Shown piece after piece: positions 17,216 through 56,815 of a stretch of 64,000 nucleotides of DNA. Both the position numbers and the translations under genes were made by a program. Below the pieces are notes generated by a model. The model saw only the letters and a list, made by a program, of their open reading frames with translations. It had not been told where the DNA came from and searched no databases. Location: NCBI GenBank assembly GCA_035479875.1, contig DATIIH010000013.1, forward strand, positions 37,089 to 101,088, given 5' to 3'. The stretch is from Patescibacteria group bacterium. GTDB taxonomy: Bacteria > Patescibacteriota > Saccharimonadia > Saccharimonadales > UBA4665. The stretch's first letter is position 1. Each line of letters starts with the position of its first letter.

Positions 17216-17308
17216 TTAGTACGTCAAGAACTCTTGCCACGACGGACGGAGGATTACCACCGGCACCCGACTGGCGCGTGAAGACACCGTTCTTACTTTG
17301 ACGGACAT
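17216..17308 (-). CDS. Putative 30-aa small protein MSVKVRTVSSRASRVPVVILRPSWQEFLTY
   Basis: AAGGAG SD shortly upstream of the ATG and a consensus sigma70 promoter ~110 nt upstream. Below the ORF-track cutoff. Confidence 0.6.
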   Translation of the reverse strand: MSVKVRTVSSRASRVPVVILRPSWQEFLTY

Positions 17309-17419: not shown

Positions 17420-17449
17420 ATAATATCAAACACCGCTTGTGCTTGTCAA
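17420..17449 (-). promoter_or_regulatory. Sigma70-type promoter
   Basis: TTGACA (17449-17444), 18-nt spacer ending in TGa, TATTAT (17425-17420). Confidence 0.65.
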
Positions 17450-17543: not shown

Positions 17544-19100
17544 CTACTTGCCTTTAGTAGTAAATTCGGTGGCGCCGCAGGTGCAGCCCTTGTTTAACTT
17601 TTTGGAGTTATAGACGTAATAGATGTTGCCCGTCTTGCCGCAGGAGGTGCATGAACGCTCGACGTCGTGCACCATATCATCACCTTCCTCAAATCCCAGC
17701 AGAACCTTCATGGCATCGGCCTCAGGGCCGACGGCCTCTACTAAGCCACAACTGCCGGCGCCGCAGAATACAACCGGCGGGGCGTCGGCTTCGATATCCC
17801 GTTCGATTGCGCGGATAGCATCTTCGGTGTGCTGCCCGCGGGTTTCGGCCAACTCACGCAGACGCTTGGCAGTCTGGACGTTAAACGCCACTTCGGCTTG
17901 ATCGGGATTGTGCTTGACCAGGCCAAACACAATCTTTTTAACCTGTCGCTCAACGAGACCCATAGCCGACCAGTGGTCAATACCGGACTGTTCGAGCGTC
18001 ATCAAGAAGTCGGCGAGATCTTCGCTGCTCGCGTCGAGCTTCTCTTGACGGGCAACGGCCTCGGCTTCGATAGCGGCGTAGTCCATGGGGTGGTCGTCGG
18101 CCACAATCTCGCCCATAAAGATGCGTTTGCCGGTGCGCTTGCTGGCGATCGCATCCAGCCTCTTGCCAACAGCCACGACACCCTCGCCGGTGACGTTAAT
18201 AACCTGCTTCTCGCGGACTTCGGCTTTGCTAAGCATTTCGCCCTGCTGGGCAACGCCCACCTCCCTAAGGAACTCAACAATATCGTCATGAGTAATGTTT
18301 TCGCCCGAGAGGCCAAGCTGTTCTTGGTAACGGGCATCTTTGCCATAACGCACACCGCGAATCATAAACTTGTCGTTCTCCGGCACATAGCCACCTAGGC
18401 CCAGCTCGGAGCCTCTGGCGTGCGCTGCTTTTGCCCAGTCAGCACATTCCGAAATGGTAGTGACGCGCGTATCGGGCAACGTCGAATTGGCTTCTGGCTG
18501 GCCAGGGCGGAGCACGGTCAAGTTGCCAACCGCCAAATGGCCTAATTTGCGAACGGCGATGTAGGTGGCCTCTTCTACGTACTCGCCTAAGCGGTAGCCC
18601 AGCTCTTCGTCCTCAGCTATCGGCGTAATGCCATCGCTTACCATGTCGATGAGGCAACGCCCTAAGAAGTGGTAGGCATTGGCAGCGGAGTCGAAGGTCT
18701 GTCTGGTCTCTGGGAAAAACTCCCACGTGCGTTTGCGCATTGCTTCGGCAAGCAGACGCTTGGTGTCTGTGGTCAGGCTCTGGCGGGCTTCGGCGGCCTG
18801 AGAGCTTTCTTTGCCGTGTGTTCGGCGCGCCTGGTTAGCGCGGGCCGCAGTAGTAAGTGGGTCAACTGCGTAAGGGACTTGCTGCTCGCTGTCGCCCTCG
18901 TTAAGTAAACGCCTGCGCCCGTCAAGGATAGCCCGGGCGCGGACACGGGCCGCTTCGCGTTCTTCACGTAAGCCGCGGATGCTGTCGGCGTCAACCCACC
19001 CCAAAAACTCCGGCCCGTTTTCAAAAACGGGGGCGGCGCTTGATGCAAATTCTGGCGCATGGGCTACGGCGGTTATAAAAATACCCTCTTTCCAGAGCAA
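17544..19100 (-). CDS. Soluble hypothetical protein with C-terminal Cys cluster; true start uncertain
   Basis: 518-codon ORF with no TM or signal peptide; CGAGSC, CTSC and CTC near the C-terminus. The TTG start lies inside the riboswitch terminator. Confidence 0.75.
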   Translation of the reverse strand: MLWKEGIFITAVAHAPEFASSAAPVFENGPEFLGWVDADSIRGLREEREAARVRARAILDGRRRLLNEGDSEQQVPYAVDPLTTAARANQARRTHGKESSQAAEARQSLTTDTKRLLAEAMRKRTWEFFPETRQTFDSAANAYHFLGRCLIDMVSDGITPIAEDEELGYRLGEYVEEATYIAVRKLGHLAVGNLTVLRPGQPEANSTLPDTRVTTISECADWAKAAHARGSELGLGGYVPENDKFMIRGVRYGKDARYQEQLGLSGENITHDDIVEFLREVGVAQQGEMLSKAEVREKQVINVTGEGVVAVGKRLDAIASKRTGKRIFMGEIVADDHPMDYAAIEAEAVARQEKLDASSEDLADFLMTLEQSGIDHWSAMGLVERQVKKIVFGLVKHNPDQAEVAFNVQTAKRLRELAETRGQHTEDAIRAIERDIEADAPPVVFCGAGSCGLVEAVGPEADAMKVLLGFEEGDDMVHDVERSCTSCGKTGNIYYVYNSKKLNKGCTCGATEFTTKGK

Positions 19101-19232
19101 GGTAGAGGGTGAGGTAGGCGCTTTCCTGCTCGGGAATGTCGTTACAAGCTGTATCGGACTCGACCCTATGGGGCATCACCGTTGCGGCACAGTACAGGAT
19201 TCTCACCTGCTTCCAGCAATATGTTGTTAAGT
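19074..19232 (-). ncRNA. Cobalamin riboswitch, short class-II-like (AdoCbl-variant-like), with terminator/antiterminator platform
   Basis: GCUG-GAAG-CAGG UGAGAAU CCUG-U-ACUGU GCCGCA ACGGU-GA-hairpin-GAGUCCGAUA-CAGC, an outer stem, a downstream UUCC-CGAGCA-GGAA hairpin, then ACCCUCU/AGAGGGU followed by AUUUUU. Confidence 0.82.
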
Positions 19233-19238
19233 ACATCT

Positions 19239-19247
19239 ATCATAGCA
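19239..19247 (-). promoter_or_regulatory. Extended -10 promoter for the riboswitch leader
   Basis: TGCTATGAT; predicted start site ~19232, at the 5' edge of the aptamer. Confidence 0.6.
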
Positions 19248-19295
19248 AACTAGACACTACATACGTGGTGTAGTTTTACCAACAAAGCACTACGA

Positions 19296-19757
19296 TTACT
19301 GCTCGGCGGCAGTCGTCTTTTGCTTGAGGGCGCTGAGGCGCGGAATAAAGCTCTGAGCGGCGCCATCGAGGCCTAGAACCTTAAGCGCACCTACCAATAC
19401 ATATAAATGGTCGAGATTATCGGTTGCCACTTGGCCGGCCTGCTCCAGCTCGGCAAACAAATACTCTACCTTTTCGACCAACCACTTTTCTTCAGACGGT
19501 TTTATTTGATTGGTGGGAATCTTGCTTGGTTCGCTAGGCTCGACAACTTCGAGCGAGCGCGCCGAGTGGTCGCGCTTGCGCAAATGCCCGCGCCGGATGA
19601 GATTATTAATATGCAACGCCACAGTCGCCACCGATGTGTAATTAAGCCCTGTCATTATTTCTCGGTAACTCGGGCTATACCCGTGCTCGGCAATAAACTG
19701 CTCGATAAAGGTTAGTAGCTCGCGTTGCTTTTTGGTTGGTCGTACGGTGTCGCTCAT
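19296..19757 (-). CDS. LexA-like repressor: N-terminal winged HTH only, no S24 peptidase domain
   Basis: TKKQRELLTFIEQFIAEHGYSPSYREI...SVATVALHINNLIRRGHLRKRDHSARSLEV. The C-terminus is helical, with no Ala-Gly site or Ser/Lys dyad. SD AAGGAGG. Confidence 0.82.
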   Translation of the reverse strand: MSDTVRPTKKQRELLTFIEQFIAEHGYSPSYREIMTGLNYTSVATVALHINNLIRRGHLRKRDHSARSLEVVEPSEPSKIPTNQIKPSEEKWLVEKVEYLFAELEQAGQVATDNLDHLYVLVGALKVLGLDGAAQSFIPRLSALKQKTTAAEQ

Positions 19758-19773
19758 GCCCCCTCCTTTGCAA

Positions 19774-19963
19774 AGACCCGCCGTGCGGGGTACTGTGCCC
19801 CGAGGCGATACCAAAAGTGATTACTCAAGGTAAACCAAGCCGCCGCAAGAGAGAATTTACGCTCCGTGCCCACGTCGCGAGCAAACAGAGCAATCCCACC
19901 CCAGTGATAGCAGGTTCCGCCAATCATACACTCATTTTGTTGGATAAGATCGGCGCGGGTCTC
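19774..19963 (-). ncRNA. Candidate ~190-nt rod-like structured RNA (6S-like or cis-regulatory leader)
   Basis: The ends pair (AGACCCGC/GCGGGUCU) and a nested series of helices with many G-U pairs forms on the minus strand only. Extended -10 TGGTATACT at 20006-19998. Confidence 0.45.
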
Positions 19964-50530: not shown

Positions 50531-51034
50531 CTACTTGGCTTCTTCGGTGGGTTCGGCGTCTTTAGACTGCTCAGTTTCGGCTTCGACAGCTGGTTTGAGC
50601 ACAATGTGGCGGTCGCGACCATCGCCGGCGGAATCGCTCAGTAGGCCCCATTCCTGGGCAAGTTTGTGAATAGTACGGCGGTCGGCAGCGTTCATTGGCT
50701 GCAGGTCCATCGGTTCCCCGCTGTCTTTCACCTGCTTCATCCACGATTCGGCGTGTTCACTCAAGCGCTGGGCGCGCTGCTTCTTGTAGTCAGCAACATC
50801 GATGTTTACACGCGTGTATTCAAAACCCTGATTCTTAAGTGCGTTGCTGGTTAAAAATTGCATGGCGCGCATGTTATCGCCTTTTTGGCCAATTAGAAAG
50901 CCATTGAGGTGGGTCGAGGGGATATCGAGCTCGATCACGTCGTCTTCGGCGGTGGCGTGAACGTCGGTGTTCAGCCCAAAAAAGGATAGTAAGTCTTCGA
51001 GGTACTTTTTGGCGTAACGAATTGCTTCTTCCAT
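50531..51034 (-). CDS. jag: Jag/KhpB-like KH-R3H RNA-binding protein
   Basis: LIGQKG KH motif; PMNAADRRTIH R3H motif. Confidence 0.88.
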   Translation of the reverse strand: MEEAIRYAKKYLEDLLSFFGLNTDVHATAEDDVIELDIPSTHLNGFLIGQKGDNMRAMQFLTSNALKNQGFEYTRVNIDVADYKKQRAQRLSEHAESWMKQVKDSGEPMDLQPMNAADRRTIHKLAQEWGLLSDSAGDGRDRHIVLKPAVEAETEQSKDAEPTEEAK

Positions 51035-51996
51035 TATTTTTTCCTCCGATTACCGCTCTTCTTGCCCGACTTTTTCTTCGGCTTGCGGGCGGCCGGGGTG
51101 GACGCTGGTGTAGTGGATACGACTTCGGCTTCGGTGGCTTTTTGGGCCTTGGCTTTAATGGTGGCGACTGCGGGTGTGACTTCGGCTTCCATTTCGGTAA
51201 CGTCCTCGCGGAGCAGCCAAGTTTGCTGGGCGAGCGCAACTGCGCCGCTCACTAGCCAGTAGAGACCCAGGGCCGAGGGCAAACTCACCGTGAACAGGAA
51301 CACCATCACCGGCAACAAGTAGCGTGTGCTGCGGCCCACTGCGGCGTTGACCTCGGTTTGGTCGGCCTGTTTACCACTGTTGGCGTCCTTAAGAATAGCG
51401 CGCAGCGAGCGTGAGTCGCTCGTGGTGGGCGTGAGTTGTTTGCCCTGGTAATACTGCACGACGGCGCTGCTGAGCACGATGATCATCGCCGGCCAGTACA
51501 ATCCTTGGGGTCCGAGCGCGGCGCGGTTAAGGTTGACAACGTGGAATAGCGTGGCGTCAAAGGCATGGATATTGCCAGCCAGGTGCTGCATCCAAGACAG
51601 ATGCTGCAACGATGGATACGCAAATGTAATCAGTTGGTGCGGGTCGTCGAGCACGCGACGCAAGCCGCTGTAGAGGCCGATTAAGATCGGTACTTGCAGT
51701 AGCATCACACCAATAGAGCCGAGCGGATTGATGCCGCGCTCTTTGTAGAGCTGCATCATGAGCAGCTGTTCTTGTCGCTTGTCGCCTTTGGTGCTGGCTT
51801 TAATGCGCTTGAGCTCCGGCTGGAGCTTACGCATCAGCTTAACTTGGTGCAGCTGCTTTTTCACCAGCGGATACAGCACAATACGTATCACCACCGTGAA
51901 CAAAATAATACTCAGGCCAAAGTTGTGGCCGGGCAGCAACGCGTAAATTAGCACTAGTAGGTTAAAAATTGGCTGGACTATCAGCGTGGTAAACAT
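51034..51996 (-). CDS. yidC: Membrane protein insertase
   Basis: LQPELKRIK, YKERGINPL, LPSALGLYW; basic C-terminal tail. Confidence 0.92.
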   Translation of the reverse strand: MFTTLIVQPIFNLLVLIYALLPGHNFGLSIILFTVVIRIVLYPLVKKQLHQVKLMRKLQPELKRIKASTKGDKRQEQLLMMQLYKERGINPLGSIGVMLLQVPILIGLYSGLRRVLDDPHQLITFAYPSLQHLSWMQHLAGNIHAFDATLFHVVNLNRAALGPQGLYWPAMIIVLSSAVVQYYQGKQLTPTTSDSRSLRAILKDANSGKQADQTEVNAAVGRSTRYLLPVMVFLFTVSLPSALGLYWLVSGAVALAQQTWLLREDVTEMEAEVTPAVATIKAKAQKATEAEVVSTTPASTPAARKPKKKSGKKSGNRRKK

Positions 51997-52400
51997 TAAG
52001 CAATCGTCTCCTCTTGGTTTACTATATCATGATTTGCGCCTGCACGCTGACGTTCAAGCACACCCGCTCTCTCGAGTTGCTGCAGTACAGCGCGCTCCAG
52101 AGTGGCGTGGTCCATCTCGGCAATAGCCGGGTCATATGCGGTGAATACGATATCGATCGGTGGCTTGAGGCGACTGGCGTCTTTACGCACAATTTCGAAT
52201 ATGCGGCGGCGGATACGATTACGTACCACGGCCGCTTTGCTTACTTTGCGGCTCACCACCACCGCCACACGCCAGGTTTGGCTGCGCGGGTTAACGGCAT
52301 AGCGCATAGCCAACGGCAACTCACCGCGGGCTGTAGAACCTTTTTGGTACACAAAGCGCAGCGAGCTGCGCCCGTGGAATCGATGTGTTGAGTGGATCAT
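51996..52400 (-). CDS. rnpA: Ribonuclease P protein component
   Basis: RVAVVVSRKVSKAAVVRNRIRRR. Confidence 0.92.
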   Translation of the reverse strand: MIHSTHRFHGRSSLRFVYQKGSTARGELPLAMRYAVNPRSQTWRVAVVVSRKVSKAAVVRNRIRRRIFEIVRKDASRLKPPIDIVFTAYDPAIAEMDHATLERAVLQQLERAGVLERQRAGANHDIVNQEETIA

Positions 52401-52904: not shown

Positions 52905-54272
52905 ATGGACTTTGGACTTTGGCAAACAGTTTTGGGGGAGATTGAATTAACCGTTTCGCGCGGCAACTTTGTCACATGGTTTAAGAACACGGTGCTGCTC
53001 AAGCAGGACGATGAACGGATCGTAATTGGTGTGCCGAACGTCTTTATTAAGCAGCAGCTGGAGCGCAAATATAACGACCTAGTGGTTGAGACGCTGCGCA
53101 AAAACGGTGCCACGCCCGAGCGCGTAGAATACAAGATCCACTCCTCGCTCACTCCAGCCCAGCGTGACGAAGCTCCCATCGTACTCGACAGTAGCCCGGC
53201 TGCCAGCCCGGCCGTAGCGCCAAAAGCACAGACTACCGGCCTTACGCACGCATATCGCCAGGGCCTCAACGAAAAATACACCTTCGACAACTTTATTGTC
53301 GGCAGCGGCAACGAGCTCGCCTATGCCGCATGCCAAGCCATAGCCGCCCAACCCGGCACCAAATACAACCCGCTATTCTTATATGGTGGGGTTGGTATTG
53401 GTAAAACACACCTCATACAGGCTGTGGGCAACATGGTACTAGCCAACAACCCAAAGGCGCGGGTAGTGTACGTCAGTAGCGAACAATTCTTGCAAGAATT
53501 TGTAGATGCACTGCGTTTTAGGAAAAACACCGACTTTGCCGACTTCTACCGCGGTGCCGACGTATTAATTGTCGACGACGTGCAGTTTATCGCCGGCAAA
53601 GAAAAGGTCCAAGAAGAGTTCTTCCATACCTTTAATGCCCTGCACCAAGCCAGCAAGCAGATTATTATAAGTAGCGATAAGCCCCCACGTGATATCCCTA
53701 CACTCGAAGAGCGACTGCGCAGCCGCTTTGTGTGGGGGATGAGCATCGACATGCAAACGCCCGATTTTGAAACGCGCTGCGCAATTTTGCAGACCAAGGC
53801 TCAAGTCCAGGGGGTCCCACTCGACACCGATGTGACCGAATACTTAGCAACTAATGTGCAGACTAACATCCGTGAACTCGAGGGTGCCCTAAACCAGCTG
53901 CTAGCCTTCTGTGAAATGCGCGGGCTGGAACCAAGCATGGGCATCGCCAGTAGCTTACTCGGCAGCAGTAGTGCGCGGCCCAAGCATATTAGTGCGCGAC
54001 AAATCATTGAGCGCACGGCGCGGCACTTCCAAATCCCTATCGAAGACATGCTCGGCCCTAAGCGCGACAAAGACATCGTCGTACCACGCCAAGTAGCTAT
54101 GTACATGCTGCGCAGTGAGCTGCACCTCAGCTTCCCTAAGATTGCCCGCGAGCTTGGCCGTAAAGACCACACCACTGCTATTCACTCCATAGAAAAGATT
54201 ACTAAAGAGTCGCGTTTGGACGCCGACATCCGCGAAGCAATCAGTGCTATAAAGGATAAATTACATGCGTAA
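52905..54272 (+). CDS. dnaA: Chromosomal replication initiator
   Basis: YTFDNFIVG, YNPLFLYGGVGIGKTHL, QEEFFHTFN, NIRELEGAL, RKDHTT. Confidence 0.98.
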   Translation: MDFGLWQTVLGEIELTVSRGNFVTWFKNTVLLKQDDERIVIGVPNVFIKQQLERKYNDLVVETLRKNGATPERVEYKIHSSLTPAQRDEAPIVLDSSPAASPAVAPKAQTTGLTHAYRQGLNEKYTFDNFIVGSGNELAYAACQAIAAQPGTKYNPLFLYGGVGIGKTHLIQAVGNMVLANNPKARVVYVSSEQFLQEFVDALRFRKNTDFADFYRGADVLIVDDVQFIAGKEKVQEEFFHTFNALHQASKQIIISSDKPPRDIPTLEERLRSRFVWGMSIDMQTPDFETRCAILQTKAQVQGVPLDTDVTEYLATNVQTNIRELEGALNQLLAFCEMRGLEPSMGIASSLLGSSSARPKHISARQIIERTARHFQIPIEDMLGPKRDKDIVVPRQVAMYMLRSELHLSFPKIARELGRKDHTTAIHSIEKITKESRLDADIREAISAIKDKLHA

Positions 54273-54535
54273 AAGCTGTGCACAAGGTGTGAAAATGCTG
54301 TGTGCTCAGGCCTTTGTTGCACACATTTTGTGCGCAACCCGAGCGCTTGCTCGTATAGCAGCCCGTGTACAAATGGCAGTTGTACCCACACTTAGTCGCC
54401 TTGTTACCCAGACTTCTTCACAGGGCAAAACACTCATTTTACCGCTGTTGCTTAGCCGTTTATCCCCACTATCCACAGTGCCTATAATAACCATAACTAT
54501 ATAAATATATTATTACTTAGTAAGGTAGGAAGCTT
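54273..54535. other. oriC (dnaA-dnaN intergenic) with tandem DnaA boxes, DnaA-trio-like run and AT-rich tract
   Basis: TTATCCCCA-CTATCCACA (54460-54477), GTGCC, six NAN triplets (54483-54500), then an AT-rich stretch. Confidence 0.78.
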
Positions 54536-55627
54536 ATGAAACTGCAGGTCACTCAGGAAAATCTAAACAAAGCACTCGGCACAGTCGCGCGGGTTGCCAA
54601 TGCTCGCGGCACACTGCCTGTACTAGCTAATGTGCTTATCAAGACGGTCAGTGGCCGACTGAGCATTGCCGCTACCAATCTCGACATCGCCATCACGCAT
54701 TATATTGGCGCCAAGGTAGCCAATGAGGGCGCTATCACGGTCCCCGCCCGCCTAATGCAAGACTTTGTGAATAGTCTGCCTGGCGGTGTTATCGACCTTA
54801 GTCTCGACGACTACAAGCTCAATATTGCTACTGAGCAGTACCAGTCGGTGATTAATGGCGTGAGCGCCGAAGAGTTTCCGGTGATGCCAGCGATTACTGA
54901 GGGCAAAACTTGGACGGTTCCTTCCGAAGTGCTCAAAAAGAGCTTACAGCAAGTAGTAATTGCCGCCAGTACCGACGAAGCCCGCCCTGTGCTCACTGGC
55001 GTGTACCTACACACCAATAGCGGCAAATTATACATGGCTGCCACCGACAGTTACCGCCTAGCCGAAAAGCAATTGATCGGCAGCAAAGAAGATGTTCAGC
55101 TGCTTGTGCCGGTGTCGGCAATGCAGGACCTTCTTAGGATTGTGGGCGACGCCGAAGACGACGTGCGCGTCACCAGCGACGACCAGCAGGTGCTGTTCCA
55201 GGTTGGCGATATTGAGCTCGTGGCTCGCTTAATCGACGGCAAATATCCCGACTACCGTAAGCTGATTCCCGAAAAATTTGCGGTGACCGCTACAATGAAG
55301 CGTTCCGACCTACTAAATGCGGCCAAGATTTCTGCCCTGTTTGCACGTGAGAGTGCCGGTAGTATCACGCTTAATATCGACGAGGGCACGCAGGAACTCA
55401 GCATCCGTTCGATTGCCTCACAGCTAGGTGAGAACACGGCTAATACTGATGCTAAGGTTGTGGGTACGGGTGCCATAACGCTTAATTCGCGGTATTTGTT
55501 GGATGCGTTGCATGCGCTCGGTGGAGATGAAGTTAGTTTTTGCTTTAATGGCAAGCTTGAGGCTTCGGTGCTTCGGGATCCTGCAACGAACGACTATGTG
55601 CACATCATCATGCCTCTAAAGAGTTAA
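54536..55627 (+). CDS. dnaN: DNA polymerase III beta clamp
   Basis: PVLANVLI, ATNLD, RPVLTGV, ATDSYRLA, RLIDGKYPDY, IMPL. Confidence 0.97.
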   Translation: MKLQVTQENLNKALGTVARVANARGTLPVLANVLIKTVSGRLSIAATNLDIAITHYIGAKVANEGAITVPARLMQDFVNSLPGGVIDLSLDDYKLNIATEQYQSVINGVSAEEFPVMPAITEGKTWTVPSEVLKKSLQQVVIAASTDEARPVLTGVYLHTNSGKLYMAATDSYRLAEKQLIGSKEDVQLLVPVSAMQDLLRIVGDAEDDVRVTSDDQQVLFQVGDIELVARLIDGKYPDYRKLIPEKFAVTATMKRSDLLNAAKISALFARESAGSITLNIDEGTQELSIRSIASQLGENTANTDAKVVGTGAITLNSRYLLDALHALGGDEVSFCFNGKLEASVLRDPATNDYVHIIMPLKS

Positions 55628-55634
55628 ATAGGAA

Positions 55635-55741
55635 GGCACAAAACGTACAAATCCAAGAAGGTGTGCGTTTCACGCAGAGAACATATGTTCTCTGGTTGCA
55701 CTACGCTGGACCCACCTTCTTGGATTTGTACGTTTTGTGCC
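55635..55741. repeat. Perfect 29-bp inverted repeat enclosing a 20-bp palindrome
   Basis: GGCACAAAACGTACAAATCCAAGAAGGTG (55635-55663) and its exact reverse complement (55713-55741); CAGAGAACATATGTTCTCTG at 55675-55694. Confidence 0.92.
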
Positions 55742-55756
55742 ACACTATAATTAATT

Positions 55757-56815
55757 ATGATTACAGATCTGCGTCTTCAAAACTTTCGTTCGTACAATGA
55801 TGCGTCGTTTGAGCTCTCGTCCGGGGTGAATATTATTGTCGGGCCGAATGCCAGCGGGAAGACGAATTTGTTGGAGGCGGTGTTGGTGTTGGCACGCGGT
55901 GGGTCGTACCGAGCGAGCGATAGTGAGTTGGTGCAGTTTAACGCGTCCTGGAGCCGCCTGGACGCCGATACGCCGCACGGCAAGCGCACGGTCAAGTTGG
56001 AGCAGATGGCGCACGATAAGTACCTCAAAAGCTTTGAGATTGACGGCCAGACACTCAGCCGTCTTACCTCAGCGCGCACGATGCCCGTAGCATTGTTTGA
56101 ACCGAATCATTTACTGCTTTTGAGTGGCTCACCCGAACTTCGTCGTACCTTTATTGATGACCTCATAGAACAGACTATTCCGGGCTACGGTGCCACACGC
56201 CGGCACTTCAAGCGCGTGTTGGCTCAGCGCAATGCACTGCTTAAAAAGCAGCCGCGCAATCTGGCGGAGCAACTCTTTGTGTGGAATATCCGTTTGAGTG
56301 AGTTAGGCGGCAAGATAGCCAGTGAGCGTCAAAAGCTCACTGAACGTTTTAATGAGCGGATCGATGAGTTGTACGCCGGCATCAGCAATCAAAAGAATAG
56401 GATCGAGCTGGGCTACAGCGCCCAATTTCCGCTGCATAGTTACGAGACCGCCCTGCTTAGTAAACTTGAGACCGGGCTGGAGCACGACATCGCCCGCGGC
56501 TTTACTGCCTATGGTCCACACCGCGACGACCTGCTGGTGACTATCGACGGTCATCCGGCTCAAAACACTGCCTCGCGCGGGGAAGCGCGCACGCTCGTGT
56601 TGGCGCTTAAAATCCTCGAACTCTATCTACTAGAAGATATGCGCGGTCAAAAGCCCTTGCTGCTCCTTGACGACGTATTTAGTGAGCTCGACGGCAAACG
56701 TCGCCAAGCACTCACTCATTTTGTAGCCGATTATCAGACGTTTATTACTACCACCGACGCGGATTTAGTGGTACAGCATTTTACCAGCAGCAATATTATT
56801 CCACTTGGCAGCTAA
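55757..56815 (+). CDS. recF: DNA replication and repair protein RecF
   Basis: LQNFRSY, GPNASGKTNLLEAV, GPHRDDL, SRGE, LLLDDVFSELD. Confidence 0.95.
   Translation: MITDLRLQNFRSYNDASFELSSGVNIIVGPNASGKTNLLEAVLVLARGGSYRASDSELVQFNASWSRLDADTPHGKRTVKLEQMAHDKYLKSFEIDGQTLSRLTSARTMPVALFEPNHLLLLSGSPELRRTFIDDLIEQTIPGYGATRRHFKRVLAQRNALLKKQPRNLAEQLFVWNIRLSELGGKIASERQKLTERFNERIDELYAGISNQKNRIELGYSAQFPLHSYETALLSKLETGLEHDIARGFTAYGPHRDDLLVTIDGHPAQNTASRGEARTLVLALKILELYLLEDMRGQKPLLLLDDVFSELDGKRRQALTHFVADYQTFITTTDADLVVQHFTSSNIIPLGS

Follow-up and report, generated by a model that had tools for sequence, protein, structure and literature searches.

What does an orphan gene do when a riboswitch stands in front of it, and where does its translation begin? 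Both questions arise in a 64,000-nucleotide (nt) stretch of DNA from a Patescibacteria group bacterium (contig DATIIH010000013.1 of assembly GCA_035479875.1, positions 37,089 to 101,088; hereafter the window), for which a preliminary description had proposed that a cobalamin riboswitch controls a protein with a Cys-rich tail and an odd start. Riboswitches are among the most reliable signposts to the function of unknown genes, and in the present case every homologous locus examined pairs a cobalamin riboswitch with a gene of one widespread orphan family. The carriers of this family are ultra-small episymbionts that must obtain cofactors from their hosts and whose metabolism is largely uncharted. 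On the minus strand of the window, the sequence runs from a LexA_DNA_bind gene (19296..19814) through a 220-nt leader into a long open frame that ends at 17544. The mechanical open reading frame (ORF; 17544..19100(-), 518 codons) opens at TTG 19100, and its first in-frame ATG comes only at about residue 121. The best explanation of the locus, which we consider likely to hold as a whole, is a B12 OFF riboswitch in front of a gene that starts at ATA and encodes an orphan protein with a new fold.

Riboswitch aptamer

At gathering thresholds, Rfam returned no match anywhere in the 64-kb window. A local search placed RF00174 at 19130..19269(-), covering the full model (1-189) with 30.9 bits (E = 3.9e-6), slightly short of the gathering score of 31.5. 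The leaders of nine orthologous genes exceed the Rfam threshold, for either RF00174 (Cobalamin) or RF01689 (AdoCbl-II), and always do so directly upstream and on the strand of the gene. A covariance model of our own, R1, built from six leaders of homologues, gave exactly one full-length match per locus in 30/30 loci, in each case just upstream on the gene's strand, with no additional match in 334 kb; the window aptamer scored 128 bits. Such placement is far above chance. The two most divergent family members, which lie in a different neighbourhood with a NUDIX gene upstream, also carry the riboswitch (2/2), bringing the total to 32/32 homologous loci, which decisively contradicts the scenario, raised in the preliminary description, of homologues that are never linked to such riboswitches.

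Consistent with a conserved RNA structure, 96.6% of cells are paired across 30 orthologous aptamers and compensatory changes occur in 13 of 19 pairs. The covariation score was 0.53 in an alignment that had been fitted to the model, which favours such a result; slid controls nonetheless stayed at or below 0.08, and 0/500 shuffles reached the observed score. In the window, the aptamer (19125..19269(-), supported by RF00174, R1 and covariation) is a short form in which the P6 extension is nearly absent. With the cobalamin riboswitches of clan CL00101 (RF00174, RF01689; env8HyCbl type) it shares the core GGAA...GGUG...CUGUGCCGCAAC.GU...AGUC.GAUAC and covarying junction helices, and it differs from them in its reduced P6 and in a score just below the curated threshold. 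The core of its L5 loop, UGCCG (19185..19189(-)), lies inside the invariant CUGUGCCGCAAC, is itself invariant in our alignment A2 and is the proposed partner of L13. In the four soil metagenomes that contain this locus, many other contigs share a 43-nt aptamer core, as is expected for a widespread riboswitch class. Because of the comparative evidence (the orthologue matches, the placement at 30/30 loci and the covariation), we regard the leader of the window gene as a real and, as far as sequence can tell, functional cobalamin riboswitch despite its sub-threshold Rfam score, in line with what had been proposed. Within a known class it is a new member, and its platform of two hairpins is unusual; our literature search found no paper linking Saccharibacteria or Patescibacteria with cobalamin riboswitches.

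Expression platform and switch logic

The first of the two hairpins, UUCC-CGAGCA-GGAA (19123..19136(-)), is set 14 nt past the aptamer. Its CGAGCA loop is unchanged in 31/31 aligned loci, and all four stem pairs covary (4/4; CUCC/GGAG, CUCU/AGAG, CUUC/GAAG, UAGC/GCUA, AUCC/GGAU), with 97.4% of cells paired and a covariation score of 0.77, compared with at most 0.15 for slid controls. The loop, read as CG(A)GCA, appears complementary to the L5 sequence UGCCG with one bulged A. Cobalamin riboswitches form a kissing loop between L5 and L13, for which unpaired nucleotides are required (PMC5028336); because the architecture here matches that description, we named the hairpin P13, and by analogy L5-L13 docking may take place in the window. 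A separate P13 hairpin whose loop complements L5 with a bulged purine is likewise the arrangement of the env8HyCbl type.

The second hairpin (19083..19110(-), ACCCUCU...AGAGGGU) resembles a terminator and would sequester the Shine-Dalgarno (SD) sequence. Its 5' arm is ACCCTCT (19110..19104) and its 3' arm AGAGGGT (19089..19083), followed by ATTTTT; the SD sequence GAGGG (19084-19088) lies inside the 3' arm, and the hairpin is followed by AUUUUUAUA, with a U-run at 19077-19081. Folding is predicted at -12.1 kcal/mol (z = -2.2), and an equivalent hairpin with the SD sequence in its 3' arm is present in 27/27 loci analysed. A simple terminator scan omits it because its loop exceeds 8 nt. Within the hairpin, CCUUGCUCUGGAAA (19089..19102(-)) is a candidate anti-sequestor or antiterminator element that is predicted to pair with the P13 strand: in the window, RNAduplex joins AUUCCCGAGCAGGAAA of the P13 strand to CCUUGCUCUGGAAA at -16.5 kcal/mol (z = -3.8 relative to shuffled P13), and z has a median of -1.85 across 27 loci, in which the P13 strand finds its partner in the 5' half or the loop of the SD hairpin.

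From this arrangement we infer an OFF switch of the kissing-loop type, with expression at low cobamide. When a cobamide is bound, L5 (UGCCG) would dock on the invariant CGAGCA loop and keep P13 closed, which would allow the next hairpin to form; that hairpin would bury GAGGG in its 3' arm and end in the U-run, so that both read-through and ribosome loading would be blocked. With no cobamide, the P13 strand would pair with the 5' half or the loop of the SD hairpin, the SD sequence would be freed and the gene would be on. Repression of genes that are needed when B12 is scarce is a trait of cobalamin riboswitches in general. The window differs from them in that its SD sequence is not in L13 but in a second, terminator-like hairpin that would compete with P13, and in that the gene under control is none of the known B12 genes.

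Three points weigh against this account. The Rfam score of the window lies 0.6 bit below the curated threshold; the antiterminator pairing comes solely from thermodynamic prediction and reaches z < -2 in just 11/27 loci; and the window locus was found in no RNA-seq run searched for transcript evidence.

Four low-GC relatives (L023, L024, L028 and L029) have no second hairpin. There, in a further departure from known cobalamin riboswitches, the AUG abuts P13, and the hairpin lies inside codons 2-6 (ATG-TTA-GC/CGAGCA/GCTAA, encoding M-L-A-E-Q-L), which is, to judge from its layout, a purely translational version of the same switch. Other loci have GCCGAGCAG twice, and it is the second copy that codes for the conserved N-terminal A-E-Q (L015:2682-2710; L030:3905-3935). 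The 'MAxAAEQL' N-terminus looks either RNA-constrained or like a remnant of leader duplication.

Start codon

The preliminary description had remarked that no in-frame ATG lies near the leader, that ATA 19076 is in frame 7 nt after GAGGG and that ATG 19060 is out of frame, all of which is correct, and it had left a non-canonical start, a frameshift and an assembly error as options. Comparison with homologues speaks for the first of these. ATA (19074..19076(-)) would give a coding sequence at 17544..19076(-) and a protein of 510 amino acids (aa; 518 aa from TTG 19100). The same SD geometry, GAGGG plus 7 nt, leads to ATG in L014, L015, L012 and L017 and to TTG in L009, L025 and L010. L014 reads GAGGGTATTTTT-ATG and the window GAGGGTATTTTT-ATA, with TTG at the same place in L009, L010 and L025. 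Across 30 other loci, the in-frame codon 3-11 nt past the SD hairpin is ATG (24), TTG (5) or GTG (1), and ATA in the window fills exactly this slot; weak non-ATG starts (TTG or GTG) are thus used at 6/31 loci of the family, and ATA at only one (1/31). The N-terminus derived from ATA, MTAVAHAPEF, lines up with MVGVAE and MAVAAE of relatives, which answers the call in the preliminary description for an alignment of homologue N-termini. Because its SD geometry equals that of the ATG and TTG starts of homologues, translation probably starts at ATA 19076.

Non-AUG initiation (GUG, UUG; AUU of infC; rare AUA) offers a precedent, in that a near-cognate codon is placed at optimal spacing behind a strong SD sequence. 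The difference is that ATA is far rarer than GTG or TTG, and the ATA of the window is a single-base variant of the ATG of its closest relatives. The codon itself is the point that tells against our assignment: in the model bacteria for which measurements exist, ATA initiates very poorly, and given this start the window gene could be weakly expressed or recently damaged. ATA is an extreme among the weak starts of the family and may reduce expression. Given this start, the locus offers a clean natural case of ATA behind a riboswitch-gated SD sequence.

It is unlikely that translation starts elsewhere, that is, at ATG 19060 by way of a missing G (MAPEF...), at TTG 19100 or at TTG 19004 (MGWVDAD...). 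Such a start has some points in its favour. ATA rarely serves as a start codon, and an N-terminus that reads MAPEF would be similar to the MA..AE N-termini of homologues. Because the first 31 residues are disordered and variable, initiation at TTG 19004 would shorten the protein without loss of any conserved block. However, each candidate has its own difficulty. ATG 19060..19058 is out of frame and 23 nt from the sole SD sequence, with no purine-rich tract before it, and reaching it would take a frameshift or an assembly error at 19055-19062, which we rejected: contigs from four independent runs (Logan assemblies) match 18900-19350 with 0 differences and 0 gaps, albeit as contigs, which can mask rare variants, and identity without an indel in four independent assemblies makes such an error unlikely. 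TTG 19100 was rejected as well, being located in the loop of the hairpin and preceded by a pyrimidine tract. TTG 19004, with GGAG just 3 nt away, would escape the conserved SD-sequestering design and is a minor alternative.

Alternatively, the gene might be decaying in this genome, with ATG mutated to ATA, expression effectively silent and the riboswitch a relic. The window is the sole ATA locus among 31, and its clade has also lost the downstream linkage to nadD that is described below. We nevertheless consider decay improbable: the 1.5-kb frame is intact, as are the aptamer, P13 and the SD hairpin, the same allele occurs in four samples, and TTG or GTG starts are common in the family. Moreover, the protein retains every family-invariant residue, so the ORF is not pseudogene-like.

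Protein family, fold and Cys module

We found 28 homologues with 33-57% identity, all labelled 'hypothetical', all from metagenome-assembled genomes of Candidatus Saccharimonadales and none with a Pfam domain. A profile search of 1.84 billion representatives yielded 246 clusters, and the 30 species genomes in GTDB that encode the family are all Saccharibacteria or Patescibacteria. As the preliminary description had stated, the protein belongs to no recognisable family: it had no family match in Pfam or NCBIfam, no match among PDB sequences by phmmer and none in PHROGs or PADLOC, where phage or defence membership would have appeared. A profile search of the PDB gave only weak zinc-ribbon matches at the tail, and no annotated relative came to light when a profile of the most divergent members was used for a second database search. 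One family member in the JGI set, P0090, bears the source name 'imidazoleglycerol phosphate dehydratase HisB'; it covers 83% of the query and has no HisB domain recorded, and the name is probably an annotation error.

AlphaFold2 gave confident models, of the whole protein with a pLDDT of 84 and a pTM of 0.80, and of core residues 32-340 with values of 85 and 0.83. In Foldseek, neither the full model (against PDB and BFVD) nor the core-domain model (against PDB) found a match, the best E values being 0.08-0.2 with TM-scores of at most 0.15. No sequence or fold homology to MetE, NrdAB/EF, NrdDG, PduO/CobA/EutT, CobT/U/S/C or CbiZ was detected in Pfam, NCBIfam, PDB or Foldseek. The protein is soluble, without a transmembrane segment or a P-loop. 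We conclude that the gene probably encodes a cytoplasmic 510-aa protein that has a new fold and belongs to an orphan family confined to Patescibacteria. This family is uncharacterised, with no Pfam model or descriptive name and a fold without a PDB match.

Its core members share the invariant residues R48, D80, E119, E127, E166, T179, C219, K244, R257, K292, D316, Y341 and R351 and six Cys residues in the tail. The widest alignment retains only E, E, S, (K), G, D and Y together with the Cys module; C219 is lost. The module (17577..17765(-)), supported by invariant Cys residues, the structural model and weak profile matches, combines a CGAGSC loop (C446 and C451 in the 518-aa numbering) with a zinc-ribbon-like part (C484, C487, C506 and C508). 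The six-Cys tail of metal-binding type that had been pointed out earlier (CGAGSC, CTSC, CTC) is indeed present, and all six are invariant in 29 aligned homologues. The loop is predicted to be flexible (pLDDT <50 at residues 447-452), β-strands are predicted at 475-479, 493-497 and 502-506, and the four later Cys residues lie on β-hairpins. Weak profile matches to the zinc ribbons of TFIIB, S27ae and S27e (E = 0.3-1.4) agree with this model, and the four-Cys tail is accordingly a predicted zinc ribbon with two CxxC-type knuckles on β-hairpins.

Two proposals for the body of the protein fared less well. C219 (TISEC) as a catalytic nucleophile is weakened by its absence in distant members, and transglutaminase-like C..WA/His, PD-(D/E)xK and glycyl-radical motifs were dropped after inspection by eye, as their partner residues are not conserved.

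Riboswitch regulon and synteny

To which genes does this riboswitch subtype belong? Metagenome contigs were scanned with a pattern that reaches from L5 across the B12 box to L13, which gave at least 120 loci, and the first gene after each riboswitch was classified by BLAST clustering. Among the matches listed, at least 51 of 122 first genes were linked to the window's family, at least 22 encoded DUF4430, at least 3 DUF6580 (ECF-S-like) and at least 3 a PduO adenosyltransferase, the rest being unclustered or cut. DUF4430 is a transcobalamin-like B12-binding domain, and one DUF4430 protein also carries an α-toroid domain. A recurrent cluster reads nrdR - nrdJ - pduO - (DUF4430 - DUF6580) - riboswitch - X, in which nrdJ was identified by Pfam Ribonuc_red_lgC plus TSCPD and by TIGR02504. 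Compact nrdR-nrdJ-pduO-DUF4430-DUF6580 clusters with one or two riboswitches occur in L047, L051, L055, L066, L076, L081, L109, L116 and L126, and in L047 and L119 two riboswitches lie within about 1.2 kb.

Because the same L5/L13 subtype precedes DUF4430, DUF6580 and PduO genes, cobalamin is the expected ligand, and the gene content indicates that this subtype senses a cobamide. It likewise points to organisms in which imported B12 is adenosylated to serve a class II ribonucleotide reductase (RNR), with a compact B12 regulon made up, as predicted from these clusters, of a transcobalamin-like binder, an ECF-S-like transporter, a PduO adenosyltransferase and NrdJ. The family studied here would add a strongly regulated, unexplained member with a new fold to this regulon. 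Compared with the classical B12 regulon (BtuB/BtuFCD/ECF-CbrT/BtuM; BtuR/PduO; MetE, NrdAB/NrdDG), the mode of regulation and the expected expression at low B12 are the same, and the same riboswitch subtype controls the DUF4430, DUF6580 and PduO genes of related contigs; the window protein differs in having no sequence or fold relation to any classical member.

The BLAST linkage proved too generous as a measure of kinship. By hhalign, just 16 of the 51 listed proteins are true members of the window's family (99-100%). Ten proteins of the nrdJ-pduO clusters share with it only a 61-residue Cys module (hhalign 86%, E = 5.5e-6), and other groups among the BLAST-linked proteins have no relation to the family that profile comparison can detect. 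We therefore abandoned the broad 'superfamily' suggested by single-linkage BLAST, many members of which share only the C-terminal module. By profile comparison, this module, and not the N-terminal body, is the common conserved element of the apparently B12-repressed proteins. In L069 and L155, a single operon under riboswitch control contains pduO together with the gene of a module-sharing protein. A second group of proteins (526-684 aa) without a Pfam match occupies the same riboswitch-controlled slot after DUF4430-DUF6580 (L064:1511-3091, L066:5541-7337, L093:1989-3587, L097:481-2481 and L116:9569-11365); as relatives of the family they were rejected, hhalign showing no relation.

In Saccharibacteria, the order is gtrA - lexA-like - riboswitch - gene - (nadD) - kef - dsbA - CBS. 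In about 24 of 31 loci, including the divergent L041, nadD (TIGR00482) directly follows the gene on the same strand, often overlapping it; it is absent in the window's clade. This raises the question of whether the protein acts in NAD metabolism together with NadD, with the link to the B12 riboswitch secondary, and the NUDIX gene upstream of distant members could be read in the same way. We consider such a role quite improbable. In L048 and L096, the slot between the riboswitch and nadD - kef - dsbA holds DUF4430-DUF6580 instead of the family gene, and because of this nadD is best seen as a syntenic anchor and not a functional partner; a functional link to NadD was accordingly downgraded to synteny. 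Furthermore, nadD is not beside the gene in the window's clade or in the nrdJ-linked loci, and the riboswitch is universal whereas nadD is not.

Four loci (L041, L133, L135 and L148) have the exact Saccharibacteria slot (gtrA - lexA-like - riboswitch - gene - nadD/dsbA) filled by a protein of 465-547 aa. By hhalign these proteins show no relation to the family (probability 2%), yet they too end in a Gly-Cys loop plus CxxC motifs, reflecting either extreme divergence or non-orthologous replacement.

Possible functions

Genes under cobalamin riboswitches had suggested, in the preliminary description, a new member either of the B12 salvage and uptake class or of the B12-independent isoenzymes. 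That frame is still apt and is strengthened by the regulon of the riboswitch subtype. We tentatively place a role in intracellular cobamide handling at scarce B12 first: through its Cys module, the protein would capture, reduce or hand over corrinoid to a PduO-type adenosyltransferase and NrdJ. We favour it because of the co-location with uptake and adenosylation genes, because pduO is predicted to share a transcript with the gene of a module-sharing protein in L069 and L155, and because the Cys module rather than a catalytic body is conserved. Module-sharing proteins also stand directly after nrdR-nrdJ-pduO(-DUF4430-DUF6580), each behind its own riboswitch. Corrinoids are handled by thiols or Fe-S centres in the PduS cobalamin reductase, in CblC/CblD and in BtuM, which uses a Cys ligand to Co. 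Cys-based chemistry near an adenosyltransferase (L069, L155) would be a possible parallel; the window family differs in having no detectable homology to these proteins and no flavin or 4Fe-4S signature motif.

Three observations speak against cobamide handling. The nrdJ-pduO linkage comes from proteins whose one common part with the window's family is the 60-residue tail; no B12 gene lies near the family gene in the Saccharibacteria-type loci; and the 29-homologue alignment contains no corrinoid motif (DxHxxG), no flavin or nucleotide motif and no invariant His.

Nearly on a par, as a possibility still short of even odds, is a backup that works without B12 and would secure deoxyribonucleotides when NrdJ stands idle for lack of the cofactor. 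It would be either a new reductase or a salvage enzyme and, as a joint part of this proposal, would be re-reduced through a mobile Cys pair as in RNR tails. A riboswitch that turns its gene off suits the isozyme class. NrdJ is the sole B12-dependent enzyme seen in these contigs and adjoins riboswitch-controlled proteins with the same Cys module, and known families within these clusters already account for uptake and adenosylation. Class II RNRs have C-terminal, Cys-rich zinc-finger tails, and the NrdJ proteins of the neighbouring clusters end in CPSCG...CKKCYSCG; the window protein, too, has a flexible Cys pair beside a four-Cys zinc module at its extreme C-terminus. This flexible CxxxxC next to a zinc finger may recall the tails of class I and II RNRs, and the tails are not demonstrably homologous. 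Yet the body of the protein is not an RNR: Foldseek found no RNR barrel or other known fold, the wider family lacks a conserved internal Cys (distant members have lost C219), and no gene for a radical-generating partner is found repeatedly. Nor are the bodies of the module-sharing proteins detectably homologous to one another, which argues against one conserved catalytic core.

Our order of functions thus runs from cobamide handling through the B12-independent backup to NAD-linked or other roles, which are unlikely, and finally to no function in this genome, which is improbable. It is also possible, if doubtful, that the family and the wider set of proteins with CGxGS(C) plus a zinc ribbon form an unrecognised component of Patescibacteria B12 physiology with a non-PDB fold. 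If true, this would be either a new reductase or chaperone for corrinoids that supplies PduO and NrdJ or a new cobalamin-independent supply of DNA precursors. Once worked out, the role of the protein would fill a gap in B12 biology and bear on how Patescibacteria cope with a cofactor supply that depends on their hosts.

Neighbouring features of the window

The upstream neighbour (19296..19814(-)) encodes a LexA_DNA_bind-only protein, with the LexA DNA-binding domain PF01726 and without an S24 peptidase domain, and its position is kept in most Saccharibacteria loci. It precedes the riboswitch and is therefore not under its control. Downstream, the spacer between the gene and dsbA measures 375 nt and holds two conserved features: a promoter-like site at 17420..17449(-), with a near-consensus TTGACA-18-TGnTATTAT, and, at 17216..17308(-), an SD sequence with a 30-codon ORF (MSVKVRTVSSRASRVPVVILRPSWQEFLTY). 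The promoter box and the small ORF (ATGTCCGTCAAA...TGGCAAGAATT) are conserved in L001, L002 and L006, and the small ORF may be an unannotated small protein gene. Farther away, three successive ORFs at 52905..56815(+) have N-termini that resemble DnaA, DnaN and RecF, with additional minus-strand ORFs upstream of them at 51034-52400; judged by eye only, the window probably spans the replication origin region.

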